A stretch of 64,000 nucleotides of DNA from Bacteroidota bacterium (lineage in GTDB: Bacteria; Bacteroidota; Ignavibacteria; UBA10030; UBA6906): NCBI GenBank assembly GCA_031402435.1, contig JANNSJ010000058.1, positions 150,213 through 214,212 on the forward strand, given 5' to 3'. The position numbers were made by a program, and so were the translations under genes. The notes under the pieces are model-generated. The model saw only the letters and a program-made list of their open reading frames with translations, was not told where the DNA came from and did not search any database. This document shows positions 2,008 to 49,428 of the stretch, piece by piece; position 1 is the first letter of the stretch, and each line of letters begins with the position of its first letter.

Positions 2008-3414
2008 CTATTTGAGAAGAATAAACTTCTTCGCACTTGAGAAGTTACCCACATCCAGCCGATAGAAATACACACCACTCGCCAGGCCATCTCCACGGAA
2101 TTCCACTTCATGGTATCCCGCCTGCAATTGTTCGTTGACGGGTTGTGCTACTTGTTGGCCGAGAGTGTTAAATATTGTCAGCGTGACGAACGAACTGCGT
2201 GGAAGCCCATAGCGAATTGTCGTTGTAGGATTCCAGGGATTCGGGTAGTTTTGGTCCAATACAAATTCTGTCGGGCGCGACAACTGTCCGCCAAGCCTGA
2301 GGACAATCGCTGCCTTTGGGTCCGTAATGGTTATTGACCCGTTGCTTTTCAATCGCACTTCCTTGTTTCCGATAATAAGGGCTGCAGCTATCGACTGGTC
2401 TTTCATCTCCCACGTCATCGTGAGCGGATATTGTGCGTAGGATGCACGAATGGGGACTTCCTTTATCCCCCCTCCTTTCTTCACGCATTCCAGTATTCGG
2501 TTTGTTTCAAACCTTGCGTCAAAGATGCCTGCCGGTGGTGGTGGTGGGAGCTCGAAGTAGTCCAAGTCCTTCTTTTCGAGTGACTCAGAAGAGAAGTACA
2601 GAGTCTGTTGTGCGCCACTCAAATCTGAGATTGTAATCGTCCCAGCCCTCTCAGTTACAGACGAAAGGGGTGAGGCCTCTTTGTCAAGAGGCGAAACCGT
2701 TGAAAGTATCAACATACCCGCAGAGCCGGCCCTCACCCAATAGCCTTTAGCGGGCCTCAAGCTGTCGGTAATCTGATACGTTCCGTTGTATCCGTAGAAA
2801 GGCGATTGGATTATTCCCTGAGGGATTTGTTGGACAGCCGCGATCGACAGAGGTACCGAGAGTGCACCAATAACGTTCCAATCCGGTTGTACAATAATCG
2901 TATCCAACGTTCGTTGCACTCCCCCGATTGCGATGGTCTGTTGACTATTGAATTTTAGCATGTAGCCAACACCGTTCAGCAAAGTGTCTTTTCTCACGTA
3001 TCCGAGCACCGCGTTAAACTCGTAGGCGTAGCCGGCGGCCGTCGTAAAGATGGACCCCTTTCGTCGATCACCGACCGTCAGGGGAACCGATACTAGATTC
3101 CAACCATTTACAACCCCATAGTAGCTGGTACCGGCAACATAGACCAGGCGCGACTGAACCACGCTGGCCTGGTATCCGGGCCTGTAGAGCCTGGCCTTGA
3201 AGGTTGTTGTGGCAGAAATAGTAACCAGACTGTTTCCATATACAACAAACGGACTTGTTCGATCCGGGGTTGATCCATCAACCGTGTATCGCAGTGTATC
3301 GCCGGGGAGTAGGTTTTCGATATTGGAATTGGAGCGAATACTCCCACCTGCATTTCCCGAGTGGACGAGAATACATGCTGCGACCGCGAATCCAAAAACT
3401 ATTCGTTTCGGCAT
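2008..3414 (-). CDS. T9SS type A sorting-domain protein with N-terminal FN3-associated (CHB_HEX_C-like) domain
   Basis: Signal peptide; LRYTVDGSTP...TTFKARLY module; GWNLVSVPL and DWNVIGALS repeats; C-terminal LDQNYPNPWNPTTTIRYGLP...SGVYFYRL...KKFILLK. Confidence 0.85.
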   Translation of the reverse strand: MPKRIVFGFAVAACILVHSGNAGGSIRSNSNIENLLPGDTLRYTVDGSTPDRTSPFVVYGNSLVTISATTTFKARLYRPGYQASVVQSRLVYVAGTSYYGVVNGWNLVSVPLTVGDRRKGSIFTTAAGYAYEFNAVLGYVRKDTLLNGVGYMLKFNSQQTIAIGGVQRTLDTIIVQPDWNVIGALSVPLSIAAVQQIPQGIIQSPFYGYNGTYQITDSLRPAKGYWVRAGSAGMLILSTVSPLDKEASPLSSVTERAGTITISDLSGAQQTLYFSSESLEKKDLDYFELPPPPPAGIFDARFETNRILECVKKGGGIKEVPIRASYAQYPLTMTWEMKDQSIAAALIIGNKEVRLKSNGSITITDPKAAIVLRLGGQLSRPTEFVLDQNYPNPWNPTTTIRYGLPRSSFVTLTIFNTLGQQVAQPVNEQLQAGYHEVEFRGDGLASGVYFYRLDVGNFSSAKKFILLK

Positions 3415-6126: not shown

Positions 6127-7636
6127 CGGCAGACCTTTGTGATTGGGCAATAGCCGGAGTAGATGGCGCCAGTGTCGCCAGATCTGCTGCAGGGAAATCC
6201 ACACAAAACGTGGAGCCGGCTCCGAGCGTACTCGTCGCCGTTACGGCCCCACCCTGCCCTTCGACAAAAGCCTTGACAAGCGCAAGACCGAGCCCCGTAC
6301 CTTTGGCGCCTACCTTTGATGCGTTTGAAGCCTGGTAGAATTTGACAAAAATCTTCGGCAAGTCCTCGGAGGCAATGCCGATGCCGGTGTCGGCAATCGA
6401 GACACGAGCGCCGTTGCCATGTCGGGCAACGTTGATGGTGATTGTTCCATCCTTGTCTGTGTACTTGATTGCATTGCTTACAAGGTTGCTGAACACCTGC
6501 GAGAGCTTTTCCACATCGGCCATGATGTATGGGATGGGGCTGGCGGAAACTGCAATATGGACACCTTTTCGTTCTGCAAGTACCTGTGCATCTTCCACAG
6601 CAGCGGCAACAATGGAGAGCAGGTCGGCGAGGACAAGTTCGTATTCCATTTTACCGGCTTCGATCTTTGCAATATCAAGAAAGGCATTCGTAAACTTGAT
6701 GAGTTTGTCAATGTTGCCACGCATGGAGCCGAGCAGCCGGAGCTGTTCCGGGTTGAGTCCGCCAAGTTTTTGTTCGGAGAGGATATACTGTGCAGAGAGG
6801 ATCGTCTGCAACGGTGTGCGCAGTTCGTGTGAAATCTGACGCATCATTGCGGCTTTGTACTCATTGATTTGCCGCAGTTGATTGCTCATATCGTTCACGG
6901 CGTCTGCGAGGAGAGAAGTCTCATCGTGAGACGTTACTTTGATCTGGCCGAACGAGCCCCTTGCAATCTGCTGGGTTCCGCGAATCACCGCTTCGATTGG
7001 GTGCGTAATGGTACGTGTGATAAAGAACGCGATAGTTAACGCGACCAGCAGTGTTCCGAACGTCAGAATTAGTGCTACCCGCGCCGACTGTTGTGTCGTC
7101 AACTCTACATTCGCCATTGCCTGGTCGATGGATGCCTGACTGAGTCGCATGAACCGATCCAGAGCCTCATGAAGAATGGGAAATGATTCGAACTGACCCT
7201 GGTCAAATGTTGGCGGGGCATTCTTGTTTGATTTCCTTGTCGTTGCCCTGGACAGAACCTGTTCTCCGATCACGGCAGAAGCAAAGACGTCATGTTTTGA
7301 GCGAACCATCTGAAGGAGTTCATATCGCGCAGCGTCGGTCTGCACACTGATAAGCGAATCAAGTTCTTCGGTGAGTCGTGAACTGCCGTCGGAAAACATT
7401 GCAAAATAGGTATTGTCGTGAGCGATCAGGTACTTGCCCGCATCCTGTTCCTCTTCATACAATCTCGTCCGGATCCCCTTCGCAAGGTTGATGGAGAGGA
7501 CGTCCGACGACAGTGTGGTATGCGCTGCATTGGAAACGAGATTGAGCTCGTACACCATGTAGGCGTTTACACAGATCATGATCGCGATGATTGTCAGGAA
7601 TCCGAGCATCATTTTCTTATAGATTGTCAGTCTCAT
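6113..7636 (-). CDS. Membrane sensor histidine kinase (2 TM, periplasmic helical domain, HAMP, HisKA, HATPase)
   Basis: H-box QISHELRTPL, N-box NLVSNAIKY, G1 DTGIGI, G2 GTGLGL. Confidence 0.92.
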   Translation of the reverse strand: MRLTIYKKMMLGFLTIIAIMICVNAYMVYELNLVSNAAHTTLSSDVLSINLAKGIRTRLYEEEQDAGKYLIAHDNTYFAMFSDGSSRLTEELDSLISVQTDAARYELLQMVRSKHDVFASAVIGEQVLSRATTRKSNKNAPPTFDQGQFESFPILHEALDRFMRLSQASIDQAMANVELTTQQSARVALILTFGTLLVALTIAFFITRTITHPIEAVIRGTQQIARGSFGQIKVTSHDETSLLADAVNDMSNQLRQINEYKAAMMRQISHELRTPLQTILSAQYILSEQKLGGLNPEQLRLLGSMRGNIDKLIKFTNAFLDIAKIEAGKMEYELVLADLLSIVAAAVEDAQVLAERKGVHIAVSASPIPYIMADVEKLSQVFSNLVSNAIKYTDKDGTITINVARHGNGARVSIADTGIGIASEDLPKIFVKFYQASNASKVGAKGTGLGLALVKAFVEGQGGAVTATSTLGAGSTFCVDFPAADLATLAPSTPAIAQSQRSADGLA

Positions 7637-10280: not shown

Positions 10281-11867
10281 ATGGATCTGTTCCAGCGACT
10301 ACCGTTATCGAAAAAGATATTGCTCGGTATTCTGCCGCTGTTCCTTCTCTTCATCTCGGTGAGTGTGGTACTCCAGAATCATTTTCAGGAACAGGAAATG
10401 ATGGAGCAGGCTCAGGCGTCGGCTCACACCTATGCCGATATCATCAAGGAATCTCTCGTCAGCATGATGGTGAATAACCTGGAGGTGGACAACAGTTTTC
10501 TTGAACGCCTGAATGTGTTGCAGCAATTCGACACCGTTCATATTCTCGTCAACGATCTTCACGTGCGCGATGAACTCCTGACCCCAAAACGTATTCAACG
10601 GATCGAAACAAAGCTCAAAACACTCCAACCGCACGACTCTCTGGAGCAAAAGGTATTGGTGTCTGGGCAGCCTTTGTTCATTCGCAACGGTGATCATTTT
10701 CGCGGCGTCATTCCATTTACCGCAACCGAAGTGTGTCAGAAGTGTCACGCCGTTCCTATAGGCTATACACTCGGTGCCACGGATTTGCACATTTCTCTTG
10801 AACGGATTTCCCGGGTGGCGGCGGGAAACTGGAAACGGTCATTTATTATCTTTCTTGTCTTCACCGGACTGGTCATCGCCTTTGCAACATTCATGTTCAC
10901 GCGCTATGTATCGACACCGATTGAGCAATTGGTCGTTGCGACACGAGAGATCAGCAGGGGTAACCTGGAGTATACGATCAGCGCGGGTGAAGCAGATACC
11001 CACGTTTCCTCCTCGCACGATGAGCTGACGTTTCTTGGCCGCATGTTCGACTCAATGAGGGAGTCGCTGAGAGAGAAGATCAACCAGCTTGATCATGCCA
11101 ATGCAAATCTCTCGGAACGAAACAAGGAGGTCGAAGATGCGCTGCTGAAGTTGAAGCAGGCCCAGGAGGAGCTTGTGCGCAGTGAGCGGCTCGCGATTAC
11201 AGGCAAAATGACCGCACAACTCTCCCATGAAATCAACAACCCTATCCACAACATCCAGAGCCTCCTCGAGTCTTCGTTGCGAAAGGTGAATGGAAACCAG
11301 CAAGTGCAAGGCCTGATCGGTGTAGCGTTGGAAGAGGTCTCCCGCATGGCACAGTTGACGCGACAGATGCTGGACTTCTACCGTGGGTCCGTAGTGGATA
11401 TACCCCACGAGCTCGTGGACATGCGCAGCCTGCTATCTGAGGTGACAAGGATGAACGAGGAATCCCTTGCAAAGAAACATATCACCATCGCGCTGAATAT
11501 GCCCTCATCTCTCCCGTTGATTGAAGGGTCCCCGGATAAGTTGAAGCAAGTATTTCTTAACCTGATACTGAATGCTCGAGATGCCATGCCGAACGGAGGG
11601 ACGATTGCCGTCGGAGCCCATGCTGCGCGCGGGAGATTGGCTATTGATGTCCATGATTCCGGCATCGGTATTCCGCCGGAAAACATGGGGAGAATCTTCG
11701 ATGCATTTTTCACAACAAAGAAGGAGGTCAGCGGCGTAGGGCTGGGGTTGTCAGTGACATACGGTATTATTCAGCAACATAAGGGATCCATTGAGGTAAC
11801 GAGTGTGGCGGGAGAGGGAACGACATTCACAATTCAATTGCCAACAGTTGGTGAAACCCATGAGTGA
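10281..11867 (+). CDS. Sensor histidine kinase with periplasmic heme-c (CxxCH) sensor domain (DUF3365/Tll0287-like), HAMP, HisKA, HATPase
   Basis: TM1 after MDLFQRLPLSKK; periplasmic EVCQKCHA; TM2; H-box LSHEINNP; NLILNARDAM; DSGIGI; GVGLGL. Confidence 0.92.
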   Translation: MDLFQRLPLSKKILLGILPLFLLFISVSVVLQNHFQEQEMMEQAQASAHTYADIIKESLVSMMVNNLEVDNSFLERLNVLQQFDTVHILVNDLHVRDELLTPKRIQRIETKLKTLQPHDSLEQKVLVSGQPLFIRNGDHFRGVIPFTATEVCQKCHAVPIGYTLGATDLHISLERISRVAAGNWKRSFIIFLVFTGLVIAFATFMFTRYVSTPIEQLVVATREISRGNLEYTISAGEADTHVSSSHDELTFLGRMFDSMRESLREKINQLDHANANLSERNKEVEDALLKLKQAQEELVRSERLAITGKMTAQLSHEINNPIHNIQSLLESSLRKVNGNQQVQGLIGVALEEVSRMAQLTRQMLDFYRGSVVDIPHELVDMRSLLSEVTRMNEESLAKKHITIALNMPSSLPLIEGSPDKLKQVFLNLILNARDAMPNGGTIAVGAHAARGRLAIDVHDSGIGIPPENMGRIFDAFFTTKKEVSGVGLGLSVTYGIIQQHKGSIEVTSVAGEGTTFTIQLPTVGETHE

Positions 11868-13296
11868 CATGACAAACGCGGCCGTTCGTGCACCCGGTAG
11901 CCGGGAGCGTATCCTTGTTGTCGACGACGACAAGGCATTTCGCGTTGCGACCCAAACCCTTCTGGAGGACGAGGGGTACCGGATTTCTCTCGCTACGAAT
12001 GCCGCCGAGGCGTTGTCCGTTCTTGATCAGGACGAGTTCGATCTTCTGTTAACTGATATGGTCATGGAAAACATGACAGGTATGGAGTTGCTCAGGAACG
12101 TCCGTCGTAAATTCCCCGACCTTCTCGTGATTATGGTAACGGGCTTCGGTTCTATTTCAACTGCCGTGGAGGCCATGTATCATGGCGCTGCCGACTACCT
12201 GACGAAGCCGTGCAACAATAATGAACTATTATTGAAAATCAAAAAGGCACTGGATTCACAACAGAAGGATCGGGAGTTGAAGATGTTGCGGGAAGAAATC
12301 CGCAGCACCTACAGTTTTGGGAATATTGTAACGCGCAGCGACAAGATGAAAGATATCCTTCGGCAAGTCCGCCAGGTTGCCGATACCGATGTTACCGTGT
12401 TGGTCCAGGGTGAAAGCGGCACAGGAAAGGAGCTCGTTGCACACGCGTTGCATTACAACAGCAACCGTGCCGCTGGGCCATTTATCGCGGTGAATTGTTC
12501 CGCCATACCGGAGAACCTGTTGGAGAGTGAGCTCTTCGGATACGAGAAGGGTGCTTTTACCGGAGCGATGAAACAGAAATCCGGCAAGTTTGAGGATGCA
12601 CATACCGGCACACTTTTCTTGGATGAGATCGGCGATATTTCTGCTGCGGTTCAGACAAAGCTGCTGCGGGTTCTTCAGGAAAAAAAATTCGAACGGATCG
12701 GAGGCAATGCTTCGCTCACCGTCGATACACGCGTGGTTGCGGCGACAAATCGTGATCTTGAGATGATGATGCGACAAGGTGACTTTCGCGAAGATCTGTT
12801 CTATCGACTGAACGTGTTTCCGATTGTCCTCCCCCCATTGCGAGAGCGACTCGAAGATATTCCCCTGCTCACCGAACACTTCATGCAACGCCACTCTGAT
12901 CTCGCAGGGGGTCGCGTGAAATTCATTGCACCGGCTGTCATCAGCGATATGATGAACTATACGTGGCGGGGAAACATACGAGAGCTGGAAAACCTTACAA
13001 AACGAGCAATGATAAAAACGATTGGCGACACGGTGAATTCCATGGAGGTGCCAACCAGCGAAGGTCATCCTGCGCAGCCATCAACAGACCCTGCACAAAC
13101 AGTCAATCTGAATACTCCGTACAAGGATTACCTCTCTACCATTACCCGTGATGCCGAAGAGAAATATCTTGTTCGCATGTTACGTCTTTATAAAGGCAAC
13201 ATCAATCATATTGCCAGGATGATGGACGTGGATCGGAAGACCATTTATCGAAAGATGGCCGAGTACTCCATCGACCCATCCACATTTAGAGAGTAA
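11860..13296 (+). CDS. Sigma54-dependent (NtrC-family) response regulator
   Basis: Receiver (VVDDD, LLTDMVM), GESGTGKE, ESELFGYEKGAFTGA, LFLDEIGD, WRGNIREL, C-terminal Fis-type HTH; 8-bp overlap with the kinase. Confidence 0.95.
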   Translation: MSDMTNAAVRAPGSRERILVVDDDKAFRVATQTLLEDEGYRISLATNAAEALSVLDQDEFDLLLTDMVMENMTGMELLRNVRRKFPDLLVIMVTGFGSISTAVEAMYHGAADYLTKPCNNNELLLKIKKALDSQQKDRELKMLREEIRSTYSFGNIVTRSDKMKDILRQVRQVADTDVTVLVQGESGTGKELVAHALHYNSNRAAGPFIAVNCSAIPENLLESELFGYEKGAFTGAMKQKSGKFEDAHTGTLFLDEIGDISAAVQTKLLRVLQEKKFERIGGNASLTVDTRVVAATNRDLEMMMRQGDFREDLFYRLNVFPIVLPPLRERLEDIPLLTEHFMQRHSDLAGGRVKFIAPAVISDMMNYTWRGNIRELENLTKRAMIKTIGDTVNSMEVPTSEGHPAQPSTDPAQTVNLNTPYKDYLSTITRDAEEKYLVRMLRLYKGNINHIARMMDVDRKTIYRKMAEYSIDPSTFRE

Positions 13297-13444: not shown

Positions 13445-13461
13445 TTGGCACGCGTGTTGAC
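13445..13461 (+). promoter_or_regulatory. Candidate sigma54 (-24/-12) promoter of the ECF sigma gene
   Basis: TTGGCACGCGTGTTGAC: perfect -24 block and correct spacing, but GA instead of GC at -12. Confidence 0.4.
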
Positions 13462-13516: not shown

Positions 13517-14107
13517 ATGGCAGCGCGAACGTTATTCGAACAGGAAGCGCTCCCTCAGCTTGGAGCCCTTAAGAATTTTGCTTTCCAGTTGTGCCGGGAC
13601 GAACAGTATTCTCGTGATCTCGTTCAGGAGACGCTGTTGAAGGCGTATACATATTTCCATACCTATCGAGAGGGCACAAACTGCCGGGCATGGCTCTTCC
13701 AGATCTGCAAGAATTCCTATTTTAATGAGGCGAAGAAGCGAAAATACCAACCGGCGGCAATCGATTTTCAGGAACTGGAGTCGGGTGAGCGTTCCGGAAA
13801 GAGTGAAGACGGCGGACGAAGTCTGCACATTCTTATGAGTGAGCGCCATTCTGGATCCTTGTATACAGGTGTATTGGGTGATGAGGTGGTGACTGCTTTT
13901 GAGACTCTTCCCGCGGATTACCAGACAGTGTTGATCCTATGTGATATGGAGGGCTATACCTACGAAGAGATAGCAGGCTTTATGCAAACTCCTGTTGGAA
14001 CGATTCGGTCGCGCATTCATCGCGGTCGAAAGATGCTGGGATGTCAACTCCGTGACTATGCCGGCACACGTGGATACAAGATACAACAACAATCTCTATC
14101 CAATTGA
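13517..14107 (+). CDS. ECF sigma factor (SigR/SigH-like sequence)
   Basis: FEQEALPQL, DLVQETLLKAY, GTNCRAWLFQI; region 4 YEEIAGFMQTPVGTIRSRIHRGRKML. Confidence 0.9.
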   Translation: MAARTLFEQEALPQLGALKNFAFQLCRDEQYSRDLVQETLLKAYTYFHTYREGTNCRAWLFQICKNSYFNEAKKRKYQPAAIDFQELESGERSGKSEDGGRSLHILMSERHSGSLYTGVLGDEVVTAFETLPADYQTVLILCDMEGYTYEEIAGFMQTPVGTIRSRIHRGRKMLGCQLRDYAGTRGYKIQQQSLSN

Positions 14108-14141: not shown

Positions 14142-14312
14142 ATGAAAATTGAAACAAATAGTATCGTCACGTCTCGGGAAATCAAGGGAAAACGGCTTGG
14201 CGGGAAAGATCTGCCATTTTGGAGAAGAGAGAGCCGCGTCAGCTATGTGTTGGCGCTTGCGTTGATATTGCTTGGCTTGGTGCTGGCACTTATTCTGCAG
14301 ACCTTCGCGTAA
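14142..14312 (+). CDS. Candidate 56-aa single-pass membrane microprotein
   Basis: ATG 14142 to TAA 14312 gives MKIETNSIVTSREIKGKRLGGKDLPFWRRESRVSYVLALALILLGLVLALILQTFA: basic N-part and one clean C-terminal TM helix. Below the ORF-track cutoff. Confidence 0.5.
   Translation: MKIETNSIVTSREIKGKRLGGKDLPFWRRESRVSYVLALALILLGLVLALILQTFA
14283..14299 (+). promoter_or_regulatory. Candidate sigma54 (-24/-12) promoter of the cytochrome-porin operon
   Basis: CTGGCACTTATTCTGCA: GG-N10-GC spacing, one mismatch to TGGCAC-N5-TTGCA. Confidence 0.45.
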
Positions 14313-14473
14313 CCATGTTATGTGTGGAACTCTTGGTTCATAATGACAGCCTGAAATAACATAAAGAACATGAGAGCAGATGGGTTGCTTCCAACCGGGA
14401 CCTTCTTTATATTTCCACATAACGTGTTCAATAAGGTCTTATCGTTCTCCAACCCAATAGAAGGAATTGATCG

Positions 14474-15595
14474 ATGAAGTTTCCTCTTCGGATTGCGGTG
14501 ATACTTGTGGTGGGTCTGTTCAGCAGCATCCCCGCGTATGCTCTGCCACGATTCGCCGCTCGTACTGGCGCGAAGTGCCAGTCATGTCATGTCAACCCTT
14601 CCGGCGGGGGTATGCGTCAAACATTCGGCGTACAGTATGGTCGGGAGACGCTGCCCGTTCCAACCTGGTCCGAGGAATTTGGGCTCGATGAGTTCTCTAC
14701 GAAACTGACGGACTTTGTCTCTGTTGGTGCGGATTTCAGGACGTTGTTCTTCTATCAGCAAAACCCTGATACGGGAACTCCACCGAAATCTGTGAAGGGG
14801 GCAAACGCTTTTTGGGAAATGCAAGGCGATGTGTACATGAGTTTTCGATTGGCAAAAAAAGTAAGCATCTATCTTGATAAGGGGATTTACACAGGTTTTG
14901 AAATCTTCGGTCTGCTGAATGTTCTTCCTGCGAATGGTTACATCAAAATCGGGAAATTTGTTCCCAACTATGGAATGAAAACTGATGATCACCGTACCTT
15001 TATTCGTACACATACCGGCTTCAGCGCAGAAACCGGTCGCCCCGAGTTGACCGGAGCGGAGGTTGCCGTTCTACCCGGACCGATTTCCATTACAGGAGGC
15101 GTGTATAATTCTTCGGATGGGTTTGGTGTGGGAACCGGCAACAGCAAAGCCGTACTGGGAAGGGCAGAGGGAATGTTCAAAGCGTCAGAGGACATTTCCA
15201 TCGGGGTTGGAGGAAATGTTTTTACAAAGATGAATACCGCAAGCCAAAGGACAACGCTGTTCGGTGGATTCGGCTCGTTCAGCTATCAGGACTTCACCGT
15301 TCTTGGAGAGGCAGACCTTATTCAGAATAAGCTTGCCGGAACGAAAATCACCGGTCTTGTAACATTTGTCGAACTCAACTATGTTCTGACGCCCGGACTG
15401 GACTTGAAGGTGGGATACAACTTCTACGACCCCAACAAGGATTTGAAAACAGGTTCATTATCGAAGTACAGCATTGGATTGGAGTTCTTCCCGATCTCCG
15501 GTGTTGAGGTGCGGCCCGTCTATAATATTGTAAAGGAAGAGCCGGCAGATGTAAAGAATGATGAATTCCAACTTCTCTTCCATTTTTATCTGTAA
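14474..15595 (+). CDS. Fused monoheme cytochrome c - outer-membrane beta-barrel (Cyc2-like architecture)
   Basis: Signal peptide, then ALPRFAARTGAKCQSCH; the rest is alternating beta-strand sequence ending in an OMP-type terminus (LLFHFYL). Confidence 0.8.
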   Translation: MKFPLRIAVILVVGLFSSIPAYALPRFAARTGAKCQSCHVNPSGGGMRQTFGVQYGRETLPVPTWSEEFGLDEFSTKLTDFVSVGADFRTLFFYQQNPDTGTPPKSVKGANAFWEMQGDVYMSFRLAKKVSIYLDKGIYTGFEIFGLLNVLPANGYIKIGKFVPNYGMKTDDHRTFIRTHTGFSAETGRPELTGAEVAVLPGPISITGGVYNSSDGFGVGTGNSKAVLGRAEGMFKASEDISIGVGGNVFTKMNTASQRTTLFGGFGSFSYQDFTVLGEADLIQNKLAGTKITGLVTFVELNYVLTPGLDLKVGYNFYDPNKDLKTGSLSKYSIGLEFFPISGVEVRPVYNIVKEEPADVKNDEFQLLFHFYL

Positions 15596-15625
15596 TAATT
15601 GCAACGCAATAGGGGAGTCTGTTTT

Positions 15626-16330
15626 ATGTTAAGACGCGTACTTTTGGGTGCAATAGAACTTTCGTGCTTTATCCTTCTTATCAATAGCTGTAAGGACATG
15701 GGGAGTGAACTGCCGACGCCTGCACGTCCTGTTCTTGTATCCACCCAATCATCAGTAAACCTTAGCCCTTCGGGACAGGCGACTCTCACCATTAGCGGAG
15801 GAAACCCTCCGTATACGGTAAGCAGCGATCCTGATCCAGCACTTGCAAGTGTTGCATTGAACAACCTTGTAAACGGTACCGCCACACTGACGATTACTGC
15901 CTCAGCTTCCGTTGTGACACCCGGGACCACGTCGGTAAAAATCAAAGACACCGACGGTGACGCGCCTGCTCACGAGGAACAAGAGATAACAATTATTATT
16001 ATCGTCAATCCGGTTCCCATATCATTCTCGTCTCAAATCCAGCCGATCTTTACGACAAATTGTACGGATGCCGGTTGTCATCCCGGCGGTGGTGCACCAT
16101 TCTCTTTGCAGGCTGGCGCGAGCTATGGGAATCTTGTTGGGGTAGCAGCGACCAACGGACCTTGTGCGGGTGATCTGCGTGTGCAACCATCGAATGCCAG
16201 TGGGAGCGCTTTGATAAAACGCCTCAACGGAACATGCGGGCAACGAATGCCGCTTGGAAGTCCATCCCTGCCGTTGGCCCAGATACAATTAATAAGCGAT
16301 TGGATTAACCAGGGTGCGAACAACAATTGA
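15626..16330 (+). CDS. Lipoprotein with Ig-like domain and C-terminal cytochrome c domain (atypical CX4CH)
   Basis: Lipobox INSC; IQPIFTTNCTDAGCH; distal RMP; ends DWINQGANNN. Confidence 0.8.
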   Translation: MLRRVLLGAIELSCFILLINSCKDMGSELPTPARPVLVSTQSSVNLSPSGQATLTISGGNPPYTVSSDPDPALASVALNNLVNGTATLTITASASVVTPGTTSVKIKDTDGDAPAHEEQEITIIIIVNPVPISFSSQIQPIFTTNCTDAGCHPGGGAPFSLQAGASYGNLVGVAATNGPCAGDLRVQPSNASGSALIKRLNGTCGQRMPLGSPSLPLAQIQLISDWINQGANNN

Positions 16331-16385
16331 GAACCATTGGGGGATTGAGAGTTCAAATGCATTGTGATGATTGGAGGGAAGAGAT

Positions 16386-16754
16386 ATGAGTCGATATTAT
16401 GCATCCGTTGTGATTGGTCTTGTGTGTCTCAGCGTGTTGATAGGCTCATGTAAGGATGAGGGGCAGCCGAATTCCCCTTCGACACCGGCGGGGTCTTTGT
16501 TGACAGCAACTCCAGCCGGTGTAACGGTAGGAGCGGGTGGATCACAAAATGTAACAATCACCGGGGGGACACATCCGTATACGGCGCAGCCGCAAAATCC
16601 GGGTCTTGCTTCGGCTCAGGTTATTACAAATGCTGACACTGCCGTCATAATGATAACGGGTGTTTCCACTGCGACCGGGTCAACATCAGTGATTGTAAAA
16701 GATGCTTCAACACCCCAGAAATCTGCAACGGTCGGAGTGAACAAGACCCCGTAG
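16386..16754 (+). CDS. Small lipoprotein, paralog of the N-terminal Ig-like domain of the preceding protein
   Basis: Lipobox IGSC; shares SCKDxG, TPA, TI(S/T)GGxxPYT, PxLAS and TSVxxKD with 15626..16330. Confidence 0.75.
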   Translation: MSRYYASVVIGLVCLSVLIGSCKDEGQPNSPSTPAGSLLTATPAGVTVGAGGSQNVTITGGTHPYTAQPQNPGLASAQVITNADTAVIMITGVSTATGSTSVIVKDASTPQKSATVGVNKTP

Positions 16755-16819
16755 TTGTAGTCGATGGCAGTTGTTTGTAGAGAAATCAGTATTCATCAAA
16801 AAGAAACCAGGAGGAAAAC

Positions 16820-17251
16820 GTGAGGTTCCATGCAGCCGCAATTCTTGCCATATCGTTGTCAATAGTTGTGAGTTCTTCGTTCGGTCAAGAAGGTCAGGTG
16901 AAAAAGTCGTCAAAGAACAAGACAAGCTCACCATCATTCAAGAAAGATATCTTTCCTATTATCAAAAAGAACTGTATGCCCTGCCATGCCGAGGAGAATT
17001 TCAATCCGAGCGAACTTTCCATGGATGACTATGACAAGCTACAGGCTGGCGGGAAGAACGGCACGGCGTGGGTTGTGGGGAAACCCGACGAGAGTCTTAT
17101 TGTAAAAAAGCTTGGCAATGAGCCACCGTTTGGTGATAGGATGCCACTCAACTCCAAGCGGAAGATCACAGAGGGTAAAGCCAAATGGCTTACGGACGAC
17201 GAGGTCAAAACAATTGTGACGTGGATTGATGGGGGAGCAAAAAATAACTAG
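16820..17251 (+). CDS. Periplasmic monoheme cytochrome c (planctomycete cytochrome C / PSCyt1-like)
   Basis: GGAGG RBS and GTG start; signal peptide; DIFPIIKKNCMPCH; GDRMP; ends TWIDGGAKNN. Confidence 0.85.
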   Translation: MRFHAAAILAISLSIVVSSSFGQEGQVKKSSKNKTSSPSFKKDIFPIIKKNCMPCHAEENFNPSELSMDDYDKLQAGGKNGTAWVVGKPDESLIVKKLGNEPPFGDRMPLNSKRKITEGKAKWLTDDEVKTIVTWIDGGAKNN

Positions 17252-17279: not shown

Positions 17280-17311
17280 TCCCCGGGTGGACGGCCCGGG
17301 GATTTTTGTTT
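17280..17311 (+). terminator. Rho-independent terminator closing the cytochrome operon
   Basis: CCCCGGGT-GGACG-GCCCGGGG followed by ATTTTTGTTT. Confidence 0.75.
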
Positions 17312-17366
17312 TCGGGCATCATTGATTATATTGTTTACATAATTTCCTTGAAGAGCATGCATCACC

Positions 17367-19757
17367 ATGTTTAGAGAACATCAAAGCCTGAGCGTCAAGA
17401 GCGTCTTTGACAGCATCAAGCTGACGTCGGATTCCCTGCTGCGCCTGCTTATTGCGGCTTCACTCGTCGTGCTTCTTGCGGTGATGTTCCCGCGCGGTGA
17501 GGAGATTGATGTTGATTATAAAGTCGGGGCTGTATGGTCGCAGAAGGACGTCATCGCACCAATTTCCTTTGCTCTCTTGCGTGAAGCGCGAGAATACGAG
17601 AAGGATGTAGAGCACGCAAAGCAATCGGTGTATCCTGTGTTCGAGCGGGACGCAGCAAGCGAAAAACATCAACATGAAAGGTTGAACGGGTTCTTTGAAC
17701 ATTTGGATAGTACGCTTGACGCCAGAGGGACGCTGAAGCAAAGCCAGAAGGAGCGACGCCCGTCGTTGCCCCGCGATTCGACAACCTTTGGTCGCATATC
17801 GCAGCGTATGGAAATTCCCCTTGCAGACGGTGAATGGGAAACTCTTGCAGCACTGAGAATGTCGGGTGGCATTGAACAACTAAAGCACTCACTCGTCGTT
17901 GCGTTACAGGAATTTCATACCGTCGGTGTGCTCGACCGTCTCAAGAGCAGCCTTGTACGTCCCATCATTGCTCTGCGCAAAGGCTCGCAGGAAGAGATCA
18001 TCCCGGTGGCACGCCTGTATGATCCTGGTGATGTGCAGGAGCTTCTTGATAAGTTTCTTGTACTGTCTTTCAAGGCAGATATCAAAATCCGTTCCCTGGC
18101 ATACAAGATCGGCATTACGCTCTTCGAACCAAATATCAGGTTCAGCGAAGCCGCGACACGACAGGCAATGGAAGCGGCGATCAGCACCGTTTCCCGGACG
18201 AATGGGTTTGTACAGGAAAACGAACGCATTGTCAGCAAGCACGAGCGGATAACCCCGGAGATCAAGTTGAAACTTGAATCGCTTGAACGCTCGCGTGCCG
18301 AGCGCGGGTCAAAGAGGGACTATTCACTCCAGCGATTCGGAATCGTGCTTCACGTTGTGATTGTCGTAATGCTGTACGGCATTTATTTGTATCTTTTCCG
18401 AAAGCGGATTTTTTGGAACAACCGCCACCTCGCGCTCATTGCGTTGTTGATGGTGATGGAGGGTTTCTTCGCATACGTCACCAGGGAAATGGATGTCAAC
18501 GCTCCGATTGAGTTCCTGATCTTTGTCCCGGCGGCTTCAATGCTCTTGACGATCATTTTCGACTCACGGGTGGGGTTCTATGGTACGGTCATCATCTCGT
18601 TGCTGGTTGCAGGAATTCGCGGGAATGATTATGCCATAGCGCTGACATCCATCATTGCGGGCGCCTTGGCGGTTTATACCGTGCGAGACATGCGCAACCG
18701 GTCACAGATCTTCCGCTCTCTCGGATTCATCTTTCTTGGATATGTGCTTTCGATTGTCGCCCTTGGTGTTGAACGATTTGCATCCGCAAGCACGCTTGTG
18801 GAGCAGCTTGTCTATGGGCTTGCCAACGCCATCGTGTCACCTGTGTTGACCTATGGACTCCTGATCTTCTTCGAGCGCGTCTTCAGGGTGACTACCGACC
18901 TGACGTTGATGGAACTTTCGCACTTCAATCATCCACTCCTGAAAAAACTCTCCGAACAGGCGCCCGGCACGTATCATCACAGCCTGACGATAGCGACGCT
19001 TGCCGAATCCGCCGCCTCTGCTGTTGGAGCAAACGAAGTTCTTGCGCGGGTAGGGGCACTGTTTCATGATATTGGCAAACTAGTGAAGCCGATGTATTTT
19101 TCGGAGAATCAAAAAGGATCGCGCAACAGGCACGATAAACTCACTCCGCGGATGAGTTCACTGATCATCTCCGCGCATGTGAAGGAAGGTGTGGCCCTCG
19201 GCGAGGAACATAGCTTGCCACGGGAAGTGATCGACTTTATCCCGATGCACCACGGGACAACACGGATCGAGTACTTTTATAACAAGGCCATGAATCTCGC
19301 CAGTCAGTCCGATGATGAGACAAAGATCGAGGAGATCAATGAACAGGACTACCGGTATCCCGGCCCGAAGCCGCAAACTCGCGAAACGGGAATTCTGATG
19401 CTTGCCGATGCCGTGGAAGCGTCCACGCGGACACTGGATGATCCCTCACCACAAAAATTGGAAGGCGTCATCGGAGAAATTATCAAGAAGAGGTTTGAGG
19501 AGGGCGAGTTGGACGAGTGTCCGCTTACGCTCAAAGACCTGACGAAGATACGTGCTGCGTTCCTCAATGTGTTGGTAGGAATACATCATACTCGCGTCAA
19601 GTATCCTGAGTTGCCAAAGAAGAGAACCCCCAGACCCAAGCGAGCTACACAGCTCTCCGGGCTGGCGTCACAAGATGTGTCGGCAAGTTCACCAATAACA
19701 CCGGCCTCACCGGACGCTTCGGGCCAAACAGAGAATGGAACGCAGAAGACAGAATGA
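17367..19757 (+). CDS. 7TM-HD (HDIG) membrane phosphohydrolase, PgpH-like
   Basis: N-terminal TM, large extracellular domain, 7 TM block, then HHSL...LFHDIGK...MHHG...MLADAVEA. Confidence 0.9.
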   Translation: MFREHQSLSVKSVFDSIKLTSDSLLRLLIAASLVVLLAVMFPRGEEIDVDYKVGAVWSQKDVIAPISFALLREAREYEKDVEHAKQSVYPVFERDAASEKHQHERLNGFFEHLDSTLDARGTLKQSQKERRPSLPRDSTTFGRISQRMEIPLADGEWETLAALRMSGGIEQLKHSLVVALQEFHTVGVLDRLKSSLVRPIIALRKGSQEEIIPVARLYDPGDVQELLDKFLVLSFKADIKIRSLAYKIGITLFEPNIRFSEAATRQAMEAAISTVSRTNGFVQENERIVSKHERITPEIKLKLESLERSRAERGSKRDYSLQRFGIVLHVVIVVMLYGIYLYLFRKRIFWNNRHLALIALLMVMEGFFAYVTREMDVNAPIEFLIFVPAASMLLTIIFDSRVGFYGTVIISLLVAGIRGNDYAIALTSIIAGALAVYTVRDMRNRSQIFRSLGFIFLGYVLSIVALGVERFASASTLVEQLVYGLANAIVSPVLTYGLLIFFERVFRVTTDLTLMELSHFNHPLLKKLSEQAPGTYHHSLTIATLAESAASAVGANEVLARVGALFHDIGKLVKPMYFSENQKGSRNRHDKLTPRMSSLIISAHVKEGVALGEEHSLPREVIDFIPMHHGTTRIEYFYNKAMNLASQSDDETKIEEINEQDYRYPGPKPQTRETGILMLADAVEASTRTLDDPSPQKLEGVIGEIIKKRFEEGELDECPLTLKDLTKIRAAFLNVLVGIHHTRVKYPELPKKRTPRPKRATQLSGLASQDVSASSPITPASPDASGQTENGTQKTE

Positions 19758-20656
19758 ACGATCACGTAAGAGATTATATTCATTACTTGCAGTTGGAAAA
19801 GAACGCTTCGAAGAACACCGTCGCATCATACAGCCTTGATATTAAGAGATACGTGGAGTTTCTTCGGGCCCATCGTGTGAAGGCTCTCGAAGCAGTGACG
19901 GAAGTGCATATGTCTCGCTTCATGACTGCATTGCACCATGAAGGACTATCCCCCCGATCTGTGACGCGGACACTTTCTGCAGTCAAAGGTTTTCACAAGT
20001 TTCTGGTTGGAGATGGTCTCGTTCACGCGAACCCGGCCGATAACATTGACCGCCCAAAACTTCCGCGCTCGCTCCCTGACGTATTAAGTCAACCCGAAGT
20101 GGATGCGATCTTAAATCAACCGGTTGCACTGCCGAACGACAAGCGCAACCTGTGGCTGCGCGACAAGGCGATTCTCGAGACACTCTACGCTACCGGCATG
20201 AGGGTGTCCGAAGTAATTGGCCTGAAGCAGGCAAATGTCCTGCCGGAGGAGGGAATCGTTCGCGTCTTTGGCAAGGGATCGAAGGAACGGATTGTGCCCA
20301 TTGGCGGTTCTGCACTACGATGGATTGCCCGTTATCAAAAGGAAGTACGAGGTCTTCTTGTTAAGAAAGGGAAATCGCAGGACGCCTTGTTCCTGAACGT
20401 CCGTGGAACGGCAATGACGCGTATGTCCGTCTGGAACATCGTCCAGGAATACACCACGAGCGCCGGGATTACGAAGGATGTGCATCCGCATACGTTCCGC
20501 CATTCATTTGCGACACACCTGCTCGAAGGTGGTGCGGATCTCCGCGCTGTGCAGGAGATGCTCGGGCACTCGGATATTTCAACGACACAGATTTATACTC
20601 ACATTGATCGTGAGTACCTGAAGGAAGTCCACAAGACATTTCATCCGAGAGGATGA
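19754..20656 (+). CDS. xerD: Site-specific tyrosine recombinase XerD
   Basis: RDKAILETLYATGMRVSE, GKGSKER, HPHTFRHSFATHLLEGGADLRAVQEMLGHSDISTTQIYTH. Confidence 0.93.
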   Translation: MNDHVRDYIHYLQLEKNASKNTVASYSLDIKRYVEFLRAHRVKALEAVTEVHMSRFMTALHHEGLSPRSVTRTLSAVKGFHKFLVGDGLVHANPADNIDRPKLPRSLPDVLSQPEVDAILNQPVALPNDKRNLWLRDKAILETLYATGMRVSEVIGLKQANVLPEEGIVRVFGKGSKERIVPIGGSALRWIARYQKEVRGLLVKKGKSQDALFLNVRGTAMTRMSVWNIVQEYTTSAGITKDVHPHTFRHSFATHLLEGGADLRAVQEMLGHSDISTTQIYTHIDREYLKEVHKTFHPRG

Positions 20657-20683
20657 CAATTGAATACCATCACGGAGAAAGGT

Positions 20684-22147
20684 ATGAGTACTTCATCCAA
20701 ACGTAATGGGTATCCCACGACAGTTGCCGCGTTGCGCGACCAGGTCGTTGGGATTGACACGAAAGTTCCAGTGCTCGGTGACAGTGAACGCCCGTATGTA
20801 TTTCTCGATAACGGTGCAAGTACGCCAACGTTCAAGCGGGTGATGCAATGCATCCAGGAGTTCATGCCCTGGTATTCGGGTGTCCATCGCGGCACCGGAT
20901 TCAAATCGTGGGTGGCAACCGATGCATACGACAGGGCACATGAAGTCGTGGGCCGGTTTGTTGGTACGGATCTCTCCTCGAATATTGTGACGTTCACCAA
21001 GAACACGACGGAATGTGTCAATAAACTTGCCAGCAGGTTCATGTTCCAACCGGGCGACATCGTTGTGACGACGTCGATGGAGCATCATTCCAATGACCTC
21101 CCATGGCGGAAGTATGCAACAGTGATTCACACGCCTCTTATTGAACATGGATACCTCGATCTGAATGCCCTTCAGGAAATTCTCCTTGAATTCAAAGGAA
21201 AAGTGAAACTCGTCGCTGTCAACGGCGCGTCGAATATTACCGGCATATGTTCCCCTATTCATCAAATTGCAGAGATGTCCCACGCAGTCGGAGCGATGAT
21301 CTTTGTCGACGCCGCCCAACTTGTGCCGCACCGCAGTGTCGACATTTTGCCGAATGACGATCCACAACACATTGATTTCCTTGCGTTCAGCGCGCACAAG
21401 ATGTATGCGCCGTTCGGCACAGGCGTTTTGATCGGTCCGAAGAAGTTCTTTGAAGAGAGTGAGCCTGACGCCGTAGGCGGAGGTGTTGCAGCAATCGTTA
21501 CGCTTGACGATGTACAATGGAACGAGGCACCGCACAACGACGAAGCCGGCAGTCCAAACGTTGTGGGCGGCATTGCCCTCGCGGAAGCATGCTGCATGTT
21601 ACAGGCTGTAGGGATGGACGCAATAGCAGAGCACGAGTTGCATCTCCTTGAATATGCGTACAAAAAACTGGGGAACATTCCGGGAATCGTTTTCTATGGG
21701 CCAACTGAGCGGCTTGAGGATAAAGTCGGCGTGATCGCGTTCAACATGCGGGGCATGCATCCTGGGCTTGTTGGTGCAATCTTGAGTGTGGAGGGCGGCA
21801 TCGGTGTGCGCAATGGATATTTTTGCGCGCAACCGTACGTGAAGAAGCTGCTCAATGTGGATGATGGCGCCGCAATGGTCTCTGGTTGCGGAGTCGTGAC
21901 GTCCGATGTGACAACATTCCCGGGCATGGTGCGGGCAAGCTTCGGATGTTATTCAAATGTAGATGATGTCGATGCATTGGTGGACATGCTTGTCCGTATC
22001 AGTCGCAATGAATACAAAGGAAAGTATACGCAGGATCCCGCAACAGGAAGGTTCTCGGCTGATGATTTCTCGGTGTCACTGCAGTCGTACTTCCCGTATC
22101 TCATGACGGATTCGCTTCACGAAGGTCAACACTCTGAGGCTTCATGA
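20684..22147 (+). CDS. Class V aminotransferase / cysteine desulfurase (SufS/CsdA-like)
   Basis: FLDNGAST, VDAAQ, FSAHKMYAP (PLP lysine), VRNGYFCAQPY (catalytic Cys region), VRASFG. Confidence 0.9.
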   Translation: MSTSSKRNGYPTTVAALRDQVVGIDTKVPVLGDSERPYVFLDNGASTPTFKRVMQCIQEFMPWYSGVHRGTGFKSWVATDAYDRAHEVVGRFVGTDLSSNIVTFTKNTTECVNKLASRFMFQPGDIVVTTSMEHHSNDLPWRKYATVIHTPLIEHGYLDLNALQEILLEFKGKVKLVAVNGASNITGICSPIHQIAEMSHAVGAMIFVDAAQLVPHRSVDILPNDDPQHIDFLAFSAHKMYAPFGTGVLIGPKKFFEESEPDAVGGGVAAIVTLDDVQWNEAPHNDEAGSPNVVGGIALAEACCMLQAVGMDAIAEHELHLLEYAYKKLGNIPGIVFYGPTERLEDKVGVIAFNMRGMHPGLVGAILSVEGGIGVRNGYFCAQPYVKKLLNVDDGAAMVSGCGVVTSDVTTFPGMVRASFGCYSNVDDVDALVDMLVRISRNEYKGKYTQDPATGRFSADDFSVSLQSYFPYLMTDSLHEGQHSEAS

Positions 22148-22812
22148 TTGACCAGCTCTATATTCTTCCTATCCTTCTTTTCTCGGTGATTATTCACGAA
22201 GTTGCACACGGCTATATGGCGCTGAAGTTGGGCGACCCGACCGCACAATCACTCGGCAGACTGACGCTCAATCCTCTGCCTCATATTGATCTCATCGGCT
22301 CGATCATCGTGCCATTGATTTCCCTGGTGAGCGTTGGGTCTGTGTTTATCGCGTGGGCAAAGCCCGTTCCCGTGAATCATGGAAACTTCGTCCATCCCCG
22401 GCGCGACGATTTTCTCGTTTCGATTGTTGGACCCGGATCGAACATTGTTCTCGCGTTTGTCTGCTGCATTGCAGTGATTGTTCTTCGGTCTGTGGCGGCG
22501 CTACTGAATCCGGAACAACCCTCACTCGCAACCGATGCTGTGGAATTTTTTCTGAAGATGTTCTACGGAGGGATTTATCTGAACATTGTTCTTGCCGTTT
22601 TCAATCTTCTCCCCGTACCTCCCCTGGATGGGTCGCACGTACTCGCCGCGTTCCTTCCGGCCCGCCTTGCAAATGGCTACCGCAGTATCGGTTTTGCTGG
22701 GATACTCCTGTTGATTGTGTTGATGCGCGTCCCGCTCGTGAACGAGACATTCTACGCGATCATCAGGGGGATCTTTGTACCGTTTAATATGCTCATGTTG
22801 CTGTTTGTCTAA
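22144..22812 (+). CDS. Site-2 protease family (M50) membrane metalloprotease
   Basis: HEVAH zinc motif; FNLLPVPPLDGSH. Confidence 0.9.
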   Translation: MIDQLYILPILLFSVIIHEVAHGYMALKLGDPTAQSLGRLTLNPLPHIDLIGSIIVPLISLVSVGSVFIAWAKPVPVNHGNFVHPRRDDFLVSIVGPGSNIVLAFVCCIAVIVLRSVAALLNPEQPSLATDAVEFFLKMFYGGIYLNIVLAVFNLLPVPPLDGSHVLAAFLPARLANGYRSIGFAGILLLIVLMRVPLVNETFYAIIRGIFVPFNMLMLLFV

Positions 22813-37489: not shown

Positions 37490-38059
37490 ATGCCCGAACG
37501 CCCGCCACTAGACATCACTCTACTGTTGGAAGATTGCATCAACGGGAGAAAAGGGGCCGTTGATAAGCTCCTTCCTCTGGTTTATGGAGAGCTGAAAAGA
37601 ATAGCGTCGAAGTATCTACGCGATGAATATCGTCAGCATACATTCCAAACCACTGAGCTGGTTCATGAAGCCTACATGAAACTTATCGGCGGAGAGAATA
37701 TCAATTGGCAGAACAGGGCGCATTTTTTTGGGATAGCAGCAAACTCGATGCGCCAGATTCTCGTCGATTATGCCCGAAAGCGCAATTCTCAGAAAAGGGG
37801 AGAAGGTCAAACCATTCTCTCACTCAATGAAGCTTTGGGGATTGCGGTTCAATCAGACGAAGACATACTCGCACTTGATGAAGCTCTGAAAAAGTTGGAA
37901 TCATTTGACGCGGGATTAAACAAGATTGTTGAGTTGAGATTCTTTGCGGGACTCAATGTCGAAGAAACGGCAAGTGTACTCGGTAGTTCTGCTTCTACTG
38001 TAAAGCGAGAGTGGAGTTTAGCAAGAGCCTGGTTGTTCCGGGAACTGGGAAAGGAATAG
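37490..38059 (+). CDS. ECF sigma factor, TIGR02999 / ECF43-like (kinase-associated)
   Basis: LLPLVYGELKRIA, FQTTELVHEAYMKL, WQNRAHFFGIAANSMRQILVDYAR, VELRFFAGL, STVKREWSLARAWL. Confidence 0.92.
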   Translation: MPERPPLDITLLLEDCINGRKGAVDKLLPLVYGELKRIASKYLRDEYRQHTFQTTELVHEAYMKLIGGENINWQNRAHFFGIAANSMRQILVDYARKRNSQKRGEGQTILSLNEALGIAVQSDEDILALDEALKKLESFDAGLNKIVELRFFAGLNVEETASVLGSSASTVKREWSLARAWLFRELGKE

Positions 38060-49382: not shown

Positions 49383-49428
49383 ACGAAATCAGTATTCAAG
49401 CCTCATTCGTCAAACAGGAAAGATTGCC

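Follow-up and report, generated by a model that had tools for sequence, protein, structure and literature searches.

A Cyc2-related haem porin and its partner cytochromes as a putative outer-membrane electron conduit in an Ignavibacteria genome

The stretch of DNA analysed here (64 kb of contig JANNSJ010000058.1 from a Bacteroidota bacterium of the Ignavibacteria; hereafter, the window) contains four successive open reading frames (ORF1-ORF4) that encode a putative haem-bearing porin, two lipoproteins and a secreted cytochrome c. Judged by its sequence, ORF1 is a real but remote relative of the outer-membrane iron oxidase Cyc2 that has the same architecture, a monohaem cytochrome c fused to a 16-strand porin. 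It lies outside the motif-defined Cyc2 group sampled here and belongs to a sister family, of which we found no description in the searchable Cyc2 literature. The conserved core of the locus is the haem porin together with a PSCyt1-type cytochrome, and the four-gene set is a lineage-specific elaboration of this core. We consider it fairly probable that the operon constitutes a small electron conduit across the outer membrane in bacteria of sediments.

The haem porin and its relationship to Cyc2

ORF1 begins with a signal peptide that ends in AYA and is followed by LPRFAARTGAKCQSCHVNPSGGGMR. Divided at the signal peptide, its N-terminal region reads MKFPLRIAVILVVGLFSSIPAYA and LPRFAARTGAKCQSCH, and it contains only one CXXCH, at residues 35-39 (C35-Q-S-C-H39). 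The mature N-terminus is likely LPRF..., produced by cleavage after AYA, which corrects the one given by the first-pass annotation of this DNA. The C-terminal end is ...LLFHFYL. Residues C35, C38, H39, P25, R26, F27, P42, G44 and R48 are invariant in 55/55 aligned homologues, and the segment LPRF[AS]xRTGxKCQSCHVNPSGGGMR is almost invariant among the homologues of ORF1. Further markers of the family are N41-P42, G44-G46, R48, D171-D172-H173...R178 and H370, the last of these at position -4 from the C-terminus.

An AlphaFold2 model of ORF1, built from 55 sequences, has 16 beta strands between residues 82 and 372, with a per-residue confidence (pLDDT) of mostly 75-94. A Foldseek search of the PDB ranks OprP (2o4v, E 2e-10) and OprO (4rjw/4rjx) highest; these are the templates that have been reported for Cyc2 (PMC8406198). 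Together with the invariant CXXCH, this predicted 16-strand barrel bears out the first-pass proposal of a fused monohaem cytochrome-porin, for which a structure prediction of the barrel had been suggested. The D171-D172-H173...R178 marker is placed by the model in the long loop that joins strands 5 and 6, the position occupied by the constriction loop L3 in classical 16-strand porins. D171-D172 recalls the central Fe-binding site reported at D137/D138 of Acidithiobacillus ferrooxidans Cyc2; the DDH sequence is a subclade feature, found in 47 of 123 distant family representatives. Because residues alternate in a beta strand, H370 in the last strand of the model should face the lumen at the periplasmic rim, where it would be a candidate sixth ligand of the haem.

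Sequence searches of Pfam, NCBIfam and the PDB with ORF1 gave no match. Three motif-bearing Cyc2 proteins used as a control are likewise without a Pfam or NCBIfam family, so the lack of a match in these two databases is uninformative. Several frames of the window that do not encode cytochromes contain a chance CXXCH, and the motif in ORF1 might be a further case, in an ordinary porin without haem. We regard this explanation as extremely improbable because, in addition to the invariance of C35, C38 and H39, none of the 123 full-length superfamily representatives analysed is without a CXXCH in its N-terminal 110 residues. Where the motif is missing, in 150 listed hits, the sequence is a fragment truncated at its N-terminus, and the surroundings of the motif are significantly similar to those of the Cyc2 haem motif.

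Cyc2 has been defined by a signal peptide, a single N-terminal CXXCH and a fused 16-strand OprO/OprP-like porin in a protein of at least 365 residues (most have at least 400), with the motif AXPXFAR[Q/K][T/Y] five residues upstream of CXXCH and PXL four residues after it (PMC8406198). Only sequences with PXFAR[Q/K][T/Y] were retained in the published tree (PMC8406198). As the Cyc2 reference, species-representative genomes were scanned for DNA encoding P-x-F-A-R-[QK]-[TY]-x3-CXXCH, which gave at least 119 loci, and all of our comparisons with Cyc2 rest on motif-selected proteins of this kind. The loci come from Mariprofundus, other Zetaproteobacteria, Acidithiobacillus, Chlorobiaceae and Nitrospira, and also from Melioribacteraceae, Ignavibacteriaceae, Kapabacteria and Bacteroidales genomes. 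PXL follows the haem motif in nearly all of the listed reference proteins.

Cyc2 (A. ferrooxidans Cyc2, Mariprofundus ferrooxydans Cyc2PV-1 and Leptospirillum Cyt572; FeGenie clusters 1-3) is the closest known relative of ORF1. In both, the signal peptide is followed by one CXXCH no more than about 15 residues into the mature protein, and the barrel is OprP/OprO-like with 16 strands; at 373 residues, ORF1 is just over the lower length limit. The frame A-x-P-x-F-A...[T/Y]-x3-CXXCH is also common to both, with a motif-to-CXXCH spacing in ORF1 identical to that in the motif-bearing Cyc2 genes listed (at least 119), and an FG-x-x-[FY] stretch follows the haem motif in each. A small periplasmic cytochrome is encoded next to the porin gene, as is the case for Cyc2.

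The motifs themselves differ. ORF1 reads ALPRFAART and fails PXFAR[Q/K][T/Y] at two positions, with Ala instead of Arg at position 7 and Arg instead of Gln or Lys at position 8. The consensus of the family, ALPRFA[SA]RT, accordingly has Ala or Ser at the former position and Arg at the latter. After the haem motif, ORF1 reads CH-VNPSGGGMR, and the family has NP-x-GGG-x-R with about four extra residues before FG, whereas Cyc2 has CH-x4-PXL. These readings agree with the first-pass annotation, which had described the upstream motif as nearly matched and PxL as replaced by PSGGGMR. PXL occurs in none of the 115 close or the 123 distant family members (0/238), compared with 79/86 motif-bearing Cyc2 proteins. 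Conversely, Arg at CH+9 (233/238) and His at -4 from the C-terminus (232/238) are nearly universal in the family, and neither is found in the 86 motif-bearing Cyc2 proteins (0/86 for each). The family proteins are also shorter than Cyc2, mostly 340-420 residues. The published motif filter would have removed ORF1.

Profile comparisons indicate homology at a distance. A hidden Markov model (HMM) of 86 full-length motif-bearing Cyc2 proteins aligns residues 8-357 of ORF1 with 30.5 bits, whereas the best of 200 shuffled controls scored 5.2 bits. Alignment of the family with Cyc2 by hhalign gave a probability of 97.1% (E 6.6e-11), and the cytochrome segment alone gave 97.3% (E 2.2e-11). Against HMMs of five Cyc2 BLAST clusters, the family scores 11-24 bits, compared with cross-cluster medians of 31-186 bits and within-cluster scores of 405-738 bits; the pooled and cluster HMMs made here serve as a proxy for the FeGenie cluster 1-3 HMMs and cut-offs. 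In a FastTree phylogeny of 42 motif-bearing Cyc2 proteins (13 BLAST clusters) and 56 family members, a single branch parts the two groups with a Shimodaira-Hasegawa-like support of 100. This tree of 98 sequences is a proxy for the published Cyc2 tree of 1,593 sequences (Keffer 2021). The low cluster-HMM scores, the separating branch and the clean signature counts are the reasons for treating ORF1 as a remote relative and not as a member of the published Cyc2 group. Of the first-pass designation "Cyc2-like", for which a phylogeny had been proposed as a check, the architecture and the homology of the cytochrome motif were thus upheld, but membership was not, on the evidence of motifs, HMM scores and the proxy tree.

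It has to be considered whether ORF1 may still be a bona fide Cyc2 of clusters 1-3 and serve a neutrophilic iron-oxidising metabolism as its primary Fe(II) oxidase. Seven of nine motif positions match, the architecture and motif spacing are the same, the profile match is significant and the protein passes the 365-residue limit of FeGenie. In addition, iron-oxidation genes have been reported for Ignavibacteriales by surveys that used FeGenie, and Cyc2 homologues for Ignavibacteriaceae by another survey. However, these surveys may have detected the FARKY-type Cyc2 (about 390-400 residues) of Melioribacteraceae, Ignavibacteriaceae and Kapabacteria. The PRFAART sequence, the complete absence of PXL from the family, cluster-HMM scores below even the cross-cluster medians, and the position of the family opposite all 13 Cyc2 BLAST clusters make this reading highly unlikely.

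Four of the loci examined (L016, L036, L042 and L062), from Kapabacteria, Melioribacteraceae and Ignavibacteriaceae genomes, carry Cyc2 genes of the form AIPAFARKY...CXXCH...PXL that encode about 390-400 residues. The Cyc2 group and the sister family are therefore both present in Ignavibacteria-type lineages, and published calls of "Cyc2 in Ignavibacteria" may refer to either group. The first-pass statement that such a module is not well described in this lineage agrees with the lack of a description of the sister family in the papers searched, but the lineage does possess Cyc2-type genes.

The sister family is large. A profile search of 1.84 billion representative proteins recovered 1,985 clusters (counted at 50% identity) at E<=1e-3, 821 at E<=1e-10 and 278 at E<=1e-30. 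The family signature is [A]xP[RK][FY][AS]x[RKQ][TY]x3-CXXCH-x-NP-x-GGG-x-R. The 420 word-indexed homologues of ORF1 are all annotated as "hypothetical", and those bearing an organism name come from Ignavibacteria/Bacteroidota metagenome-assembled genomes, with the exception of one labelled Phycisphaeraceae. Some distant members (P0142, P0184, P0226, P0230 and P0244) have a second CXXCH 25-30 residues past the first and are dihaem variants; one of them has 506 residues.

Partner proteins and conservation of the pairing

The pairing of the porin with a cytochrome was examined in the window, four loci found by exact protein look-up and 80 metagenome loci, and downstream genes were counted in the 48 loci with at least 1.3 kb 3' of the porin gene. 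A PSCyt1-type cytochrome is encoded 3' of the porin on the same strand in 44/48 loci, and it is of the ORF4 type in 40/48. The Ig-like lipoprotein domain is present in 17/48. The first-pass expectation that the gene set is conserved together therefore holds for the porin and the PSCyt1 cytochrome, but not for the Ig-like lipoproteins, which occur in about a third of the loci.

Two distant family members have other neighbours. At locus L126 (4618-9022), a cupredoxin, a dihaem cytochrome c and a 619-residue NapC/NirT-type cytochrome adjoin the porin, a layout that recalls the rus operon, and at locus L124 the porin gene is followed by one for a P460-PSCyt1 fusion lipoprotein (6152-6943). Because these neighbours are periplasmic electron carriers too, we count them in favour of a conduit.

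ORF4 has a strong ribosome-binding site (AGGAGG) 5' of its GTG start, a signal peptide and the haem motif CMPCH, and residues 52-98 pass the gathering cut-off of Pfam PSCyt1 (25.5 bits vs 22). It was correctly recognised in the first-pass annotation as a periplasmic-type CxxCH cytochrome. The AlphaFold2 model of ORF4 has a pLDDT of 80. M108-P109 of an RMP motif is invariant in ORF4-type proteins, which suggests His/Met ligation of the haem, and the protein ends in WIDGGAKNN. A profile of 19 ORF4-type proteins matched FoxE in the PDB (5MAB, E 1.6e-5), with both FoxE domains aligned, and the haem domain of the hydrazine synthase alpha subunit (E 5e-4); a search with a single sequence gave no hit. 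In a fold search with the ORF4 model, the best match was 5c2v (hydrazine synthase; probability 0.98, E 0.02) and FoxE had an E value of 0.37. Neither is significant, and the fold search thus lends the link to FoxE little support.

FoxE of Rhodobacter ferrooxidans SW2 (5MAB/5MVO) is a periplasmic dihaem Fe(II) oxidoreductase and putative Fe(II) oxidase. ORF4-type proteins have the arrangement CXXCH ... RMP ... WI-x-x-GA in common with it, and both consist of PSCyt1-type domains. In contrast to the dihaem, two-domain FoxE, ORF4 has one domain and one CXXCH, and ORF2 has one domain of this type with CX4CH and is lipid-anchored. In the FoxE literature covered, FoxE appears alongside FoxY and FoxZ, with no porin partner named. 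PSCyt1 domains (PF07635), which include the C-terminal haem domain of the hydrazine synthase alpha subunit, are usually found within large multidomain proteins, whereas ORF4 is a stand-alone cytochrome of 143 residues tied to a haem porin.

ORF2 and ORF3 are related lipoproteins. The N-terminal half of ORF2 is 37% identical to ORF3 in BLASTP (E 3e-12), which supports the first-pass description of ORF3 as a paralogous lipoprotein, and the C-terminal part of ORF2 matches ORF4 (E 3e-4). ORF3 has no haem motif and matched no Pfam or NCBIfam family. The haem motif that had been assigned to ORF2 is CTDAGCH, that is, CX4CH and not CXXCH; an RMP motif is also present. CX4CH is kept in the orthologues of ORF2 (CVNAGCH, CVNQGCH, CANGVCH and CAVSGCH), and the lipoprotein cytochromes of the module in general have either CXXCH or, where fused to an Ig-like domain, the conserved CX4CH. 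CX4CH haem sites are known in tetrahaem cytochromes c3. ORF2 has an alternative TTG start at 15599. At locus L001 (7133-8036), the closest orthologous locus on a long contig, the equivalent of ORF2 is split into a lipoprotein part of 100 residues and a part of 172 residues with CVNAGCH; a frameshift, pseudogenization or an assembly error may account for this.

The surface-export signal of Bacteroidetes lipoproteins (LES) is K-(D/E)2 or Q-A-(D/E)2 just past the +1 Cys, optimally C-X-K-(D/E)2 (PMC5080379). After its lipobox, ORF3 reads C-K-D-E-G, in which K-(D/E)2 is displaced by one position relative to the LES, and ORF2 reads C-K-D-M-G-S-E. The module lipoproteins share C-[KS]-D-x-G-x-[ED]-P, which resembles the LES without matching it exactly.

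Proposed electron transfer and its alternatives

We infer the direction of electron flow, the substrate and the order of the partners as follows. ORF1 would be exported and would take one c-type haem at C35-x-x-C38-H39 near its mature N-terminus, as predicted from the sequence. The protein would form a 16-strand porin, and its short haem segment would lie within or beneath the pore, following the Cyc2 architecture. Electrons would be exchanged between the pore haem and a small solute entering the pore, for which dissolved Fe(II) is the likeliest candidate and a different soluble redox-active species a possible one. The electron would then pass to the PSCyt1/FoxE-type monohaem cytochromes, the soluble ORF4 and the lipid-anchored ORF2 with its CX4CH motif, which would join up with the respiratory chain. 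The Ig-like lipoprotein modules, ORF3 and the N-terminal domain of ORF2, would probably serve to dock or space the partner proteins. Fe(II) uptake by the conduit is plausible; we favour it because both components are kin to iron oxidases and because the Met-bearing partner cytochromes suggest a high potential.

Several observations weigh against this proposal. The haem segment of ORF1 (residues 18-77) has a pLDDT below 50 in the AlphaFold2 model. The barrel alone has no detectable similarity to Cyc2 barrels in hhalign (probability 2%), and the homology to Cyc2 consequently rests on about 32 N-terminal columns and the shared fold. The trace of transcription consists of one metatranscriptome contig of 246 nucleotides at a depth of 2 over ORF3 (16489-16733), and ORF1 was not found in any RNA run searched. 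Ignavibacteria-type bacteria are generally regarded as organoheterotrophs and not as lithotrophic iron oxidisers (PMC8478452). Finally, potentials of -130 mV (Ghiorsea bivora) and +208 mV have been reported for Cyc2 homologues, which implies that the architecture leaves the direction of electron flow undecided.

Electrons may instead run outward: the quinol pool would feed the PSCyt1 cytochromes and, through them, the pore haem, which would reduce soluble acceptors outside the cell (chelated Fe(III), humic quinones or other oxidants, for example). This would make the module a minimal analogue of the porin-cytochrome complexes. The G. bivora homologue illustrates that such haems can have a low potential, and the invariant His at -4 from the C-terminus might provide bis-His ligation. 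Ignavibacteria relatives have been reported to possess Fe(III)/humic-reducing machinery, and the operon lies under signal-dependent regulators. However, the partner cytochromes are FoxE-like, FoxE being a haem protein of the oxidising side, and retain the RMP Met; known outward conduits use multihaem chains, and a single pore haem reaches only solutes within the pore. We consider outward flow unlikely.

MtrCAB, MtoAB and PioAB also combine an outer-membrane barrel with cytochromes that move electrons across the outer membrane, and MtrC of MtrCAB is a lipoprotein. In the MtrAB/PioAB type, a separate decahaem cytochrome is threaded in a 26-strand barrel, whereas the predicted arrangement here is a single haem fused to a 16-strand barrel with monohaem partners. 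No multihaem gene was found in the operon or elsewhere in the window.

Gene organization, regulation and wider significance

The features of the locus are listed in Table 1. ORF1-ORF4 are all present on the forward strand at the positions reported in the first-pass annotation (14474-17251), and the hairpin and T-run of the terminator are found at 17280, where it had been placed. The four same-direction genes are separated by 30-65 nucleotides, with a conserved promoter 5' and a strong terminator 3' of them. In 38 of 71 related loci, an element TTG[CAT][TA][TA]-N16-18-TAT[AG]TT lies no more than 150 nucleotides 5' of the porin start; the spacer is 17 nucleotides in every match listed, and the conserved form reads TTG[CA][AT]T-N17-TATATT. 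DNA of the window matches freshwater-sediment metagenomes.

Table 1. Positions of the porin operon and its upstream regulators in the window.
Feature	Position	Strand	Remarks
Sensor histidine kinase, 528 residues	10281..11867	+	CQKCH (nucleotides 10734-10748) between two transmembrane segments, then HAMP-HisKA-HATPase
NtrC-type sigma54-dependent response regulator	11860..13296	+	Pfam Response_reg, Sigma54_activat, HTH_8
Sigma54-type -24/-12-like element, TGGCAC-N5-TTGAC	13446..13461	+	5' of the ECF sigma gene
Extracytoplasmic function (ECF)-type sigma factor	13517..14107	+	Pfam Sigma70_r2, r4_2; likely start ATG 13517, as in L001
Small ORF with a single transmembrane segment, 56 residues	14142..14312	+	3' of the ECF sigma gene; conserved in L001 (...SYTLAIVLVLLGVSFALFLQ...); no Pfam family
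Sigma70-like promoter, TTGCTT-N17-TATATT	14385..14413	+	61-89 nucleotides 5' of the ORF1 ATG; conserved
ORF1, predicted fused monohaem cytochrome c/16-strand outer-membrane porin, 373 residues	14474..15595	+	Member of the Cyc2 sister family
ORF2, lipoprotein with Ig-like domain and PSCyt1/FoxE-type cytochrome domain	15626..16330	+	Lipobox LINSC
ORF3, small lipoprotein with one Ig-like domain	16386..16754	+	Lipobox LIGSC
ORF4, predicted secreted soluble monohaem cytochrome c of PSCyt1/FoxE type, 143 residues	16820..17251	+	Pfam PF07635; CMPCH
Intrinsic terminator	17280..17312 (hairpin and T-run, 17280-17302)	+	9-bp stem with 7 G-C pairs, then TTTTTGTTTT

A set of regulatory genes lies directly 5' of the operon. 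The start codon of the response regulator overlaps the stop codon of the kinase gene by 8 nucleotides, likewise in L001, and the gene order around the kinase gene recurs in L001 and L002. In L001, the genes for the kinase, the sigma54 activator, the ECF sigma factor and the small membrane protein are in identical order. TGGCAC-N5-TTGAC is also found 5' of the orthologous ECF gene in L001, and L002 has TGGCAC at the corresponding place in front of a different gene. This arrangement suggests a cascade in which the kinase and response regulator would act on a sigma54 promoter that would drive the ECF sigma gene. The 56-residue protein may be a minimal anti-sigma factor or membrane partner. Among the related loci, a homologue of the sigma54 activator lies within 5 kb 5' of the porin in 8 of the 26 with enough flank, and an ECF sigma gene lies 5' of the porin in 14/47. 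The presence of the haem c sensor kinase, the sigma54 activator and the ECF sigma gene directly 5', both here and in L001, was counted in favour of a conduit.

Two other promoter assignments were rejected. The sole perfect match to a sigma54 promoter in the 64-kb window (14284-14299; TGGCACTTATTCTGCA, TGGCAC-N5-CTGCA) lies inside the conserved small ORF, is absent from L001 and is probably coincidental. An ECF-type promoter for ORF1 was discarded, as the conserved element looks sigma70-like and is also found at loci whose available upstream sequence yielded no ECF gene.

The same regulators are compatible with a non-respiratory role, in which ORF1 would be a redox-gated or redox-sensing porin, or would protect the cell at its outer membrane by oxidising or trapping Fe(II) or reactive species on their way in. 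A dedicated sensor kinase, a sigma54 activator and an ECF sigma factor adjoin the operon, and ECF sigma factors typically answer envelope stress. The operon is also without oxidase or quinol-oxidoreductase genes, and the host lineage is heterotrophic. Nevertheless, the strict pairing with cytochromes (one or two, lipid-anchored or soluble) in 44/48 loci would be superfluous for a gate, and genes for a cupredoxin, a dihaem cytochrome c and a NapC/NirT-type cytochrome accompany distant members. On balance, a function of this kind seems quite unlikely, and an electron conduit remains our preferred interpretation.

Genes for a 7TM-HD receptor, a XerD-like recombinase, a class-V aminotransferase and an M50 peptidase lie 3' of the operon (17367-22812) and are syntenic in L001 and L004, and the 7TM-HD gene comes after the porin module in 14/29 loci. 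This block probably reflects a conserved neighbourhood and not a functional linkage. Three proteins of the window have the type IX secretion C-terminal sorting domain Por_Secre_tail (2008-3414 on the reverse strand, 38011-40176 and 49360-51726), one of them with FG-GAP repeats and a P-domain and another an S8 subtilase. Together with the LptD gene at 30003-32588, they indicate a cell envelope of the Bacteroidota type. A Ser/Thr protein kinase fused to long tetratricopeptide repeat arrays is encoded at 40227-42794, and a histidine kinase with cyclic nucleotide-binding and GAF domains at 43104-44957 on the reverse strand.

A wider role can be imagined for the family. Haem porins with CH-x-NP-x-GGG-x-R might be a general outer-membrane electron gate of non-lithotrophic Ignavibacteria-type and other sediment and soil bacteria and not a speciality of iron oxidisers, with a bis-His pore haem ligated through the His at -4 and the CX4CH lipoprotein cytochrome, with its LES-like N-terminus, displayed on the surface, so as to form a three-haem wire. 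We offer this as a speculation that is improbable as a whole. If it were true, the surface cytochrome, the pore haem and the soluble FoxE-like cytochrome would be a minimal functional analogue of MtrCAB, which could exchange electrons with substrates outside the pore and would be switched on by the haem-sensing kinase cascade.

Cyc2 is the main marker gene for inferring microbial iron oxidation from genomes and metagenomes. The sister family of about 2,000 clusters combines the Cyc2 architecture with haem surroundings of its own, and the published motif screen leaves it out. It may amount to an extensive hidden store of redox capacity at the outer membrane of heterotrophic bacteria in sediment and soil; alternatively, tools that accept weak HMM matches may yield false "iron oxidiser" calls. 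The pairing of the porin with a FoxE-type cytochrome would in addition offer a compact, cloneable system of two to four genes for studies of single-haem transfer from the pore to the periplasm.

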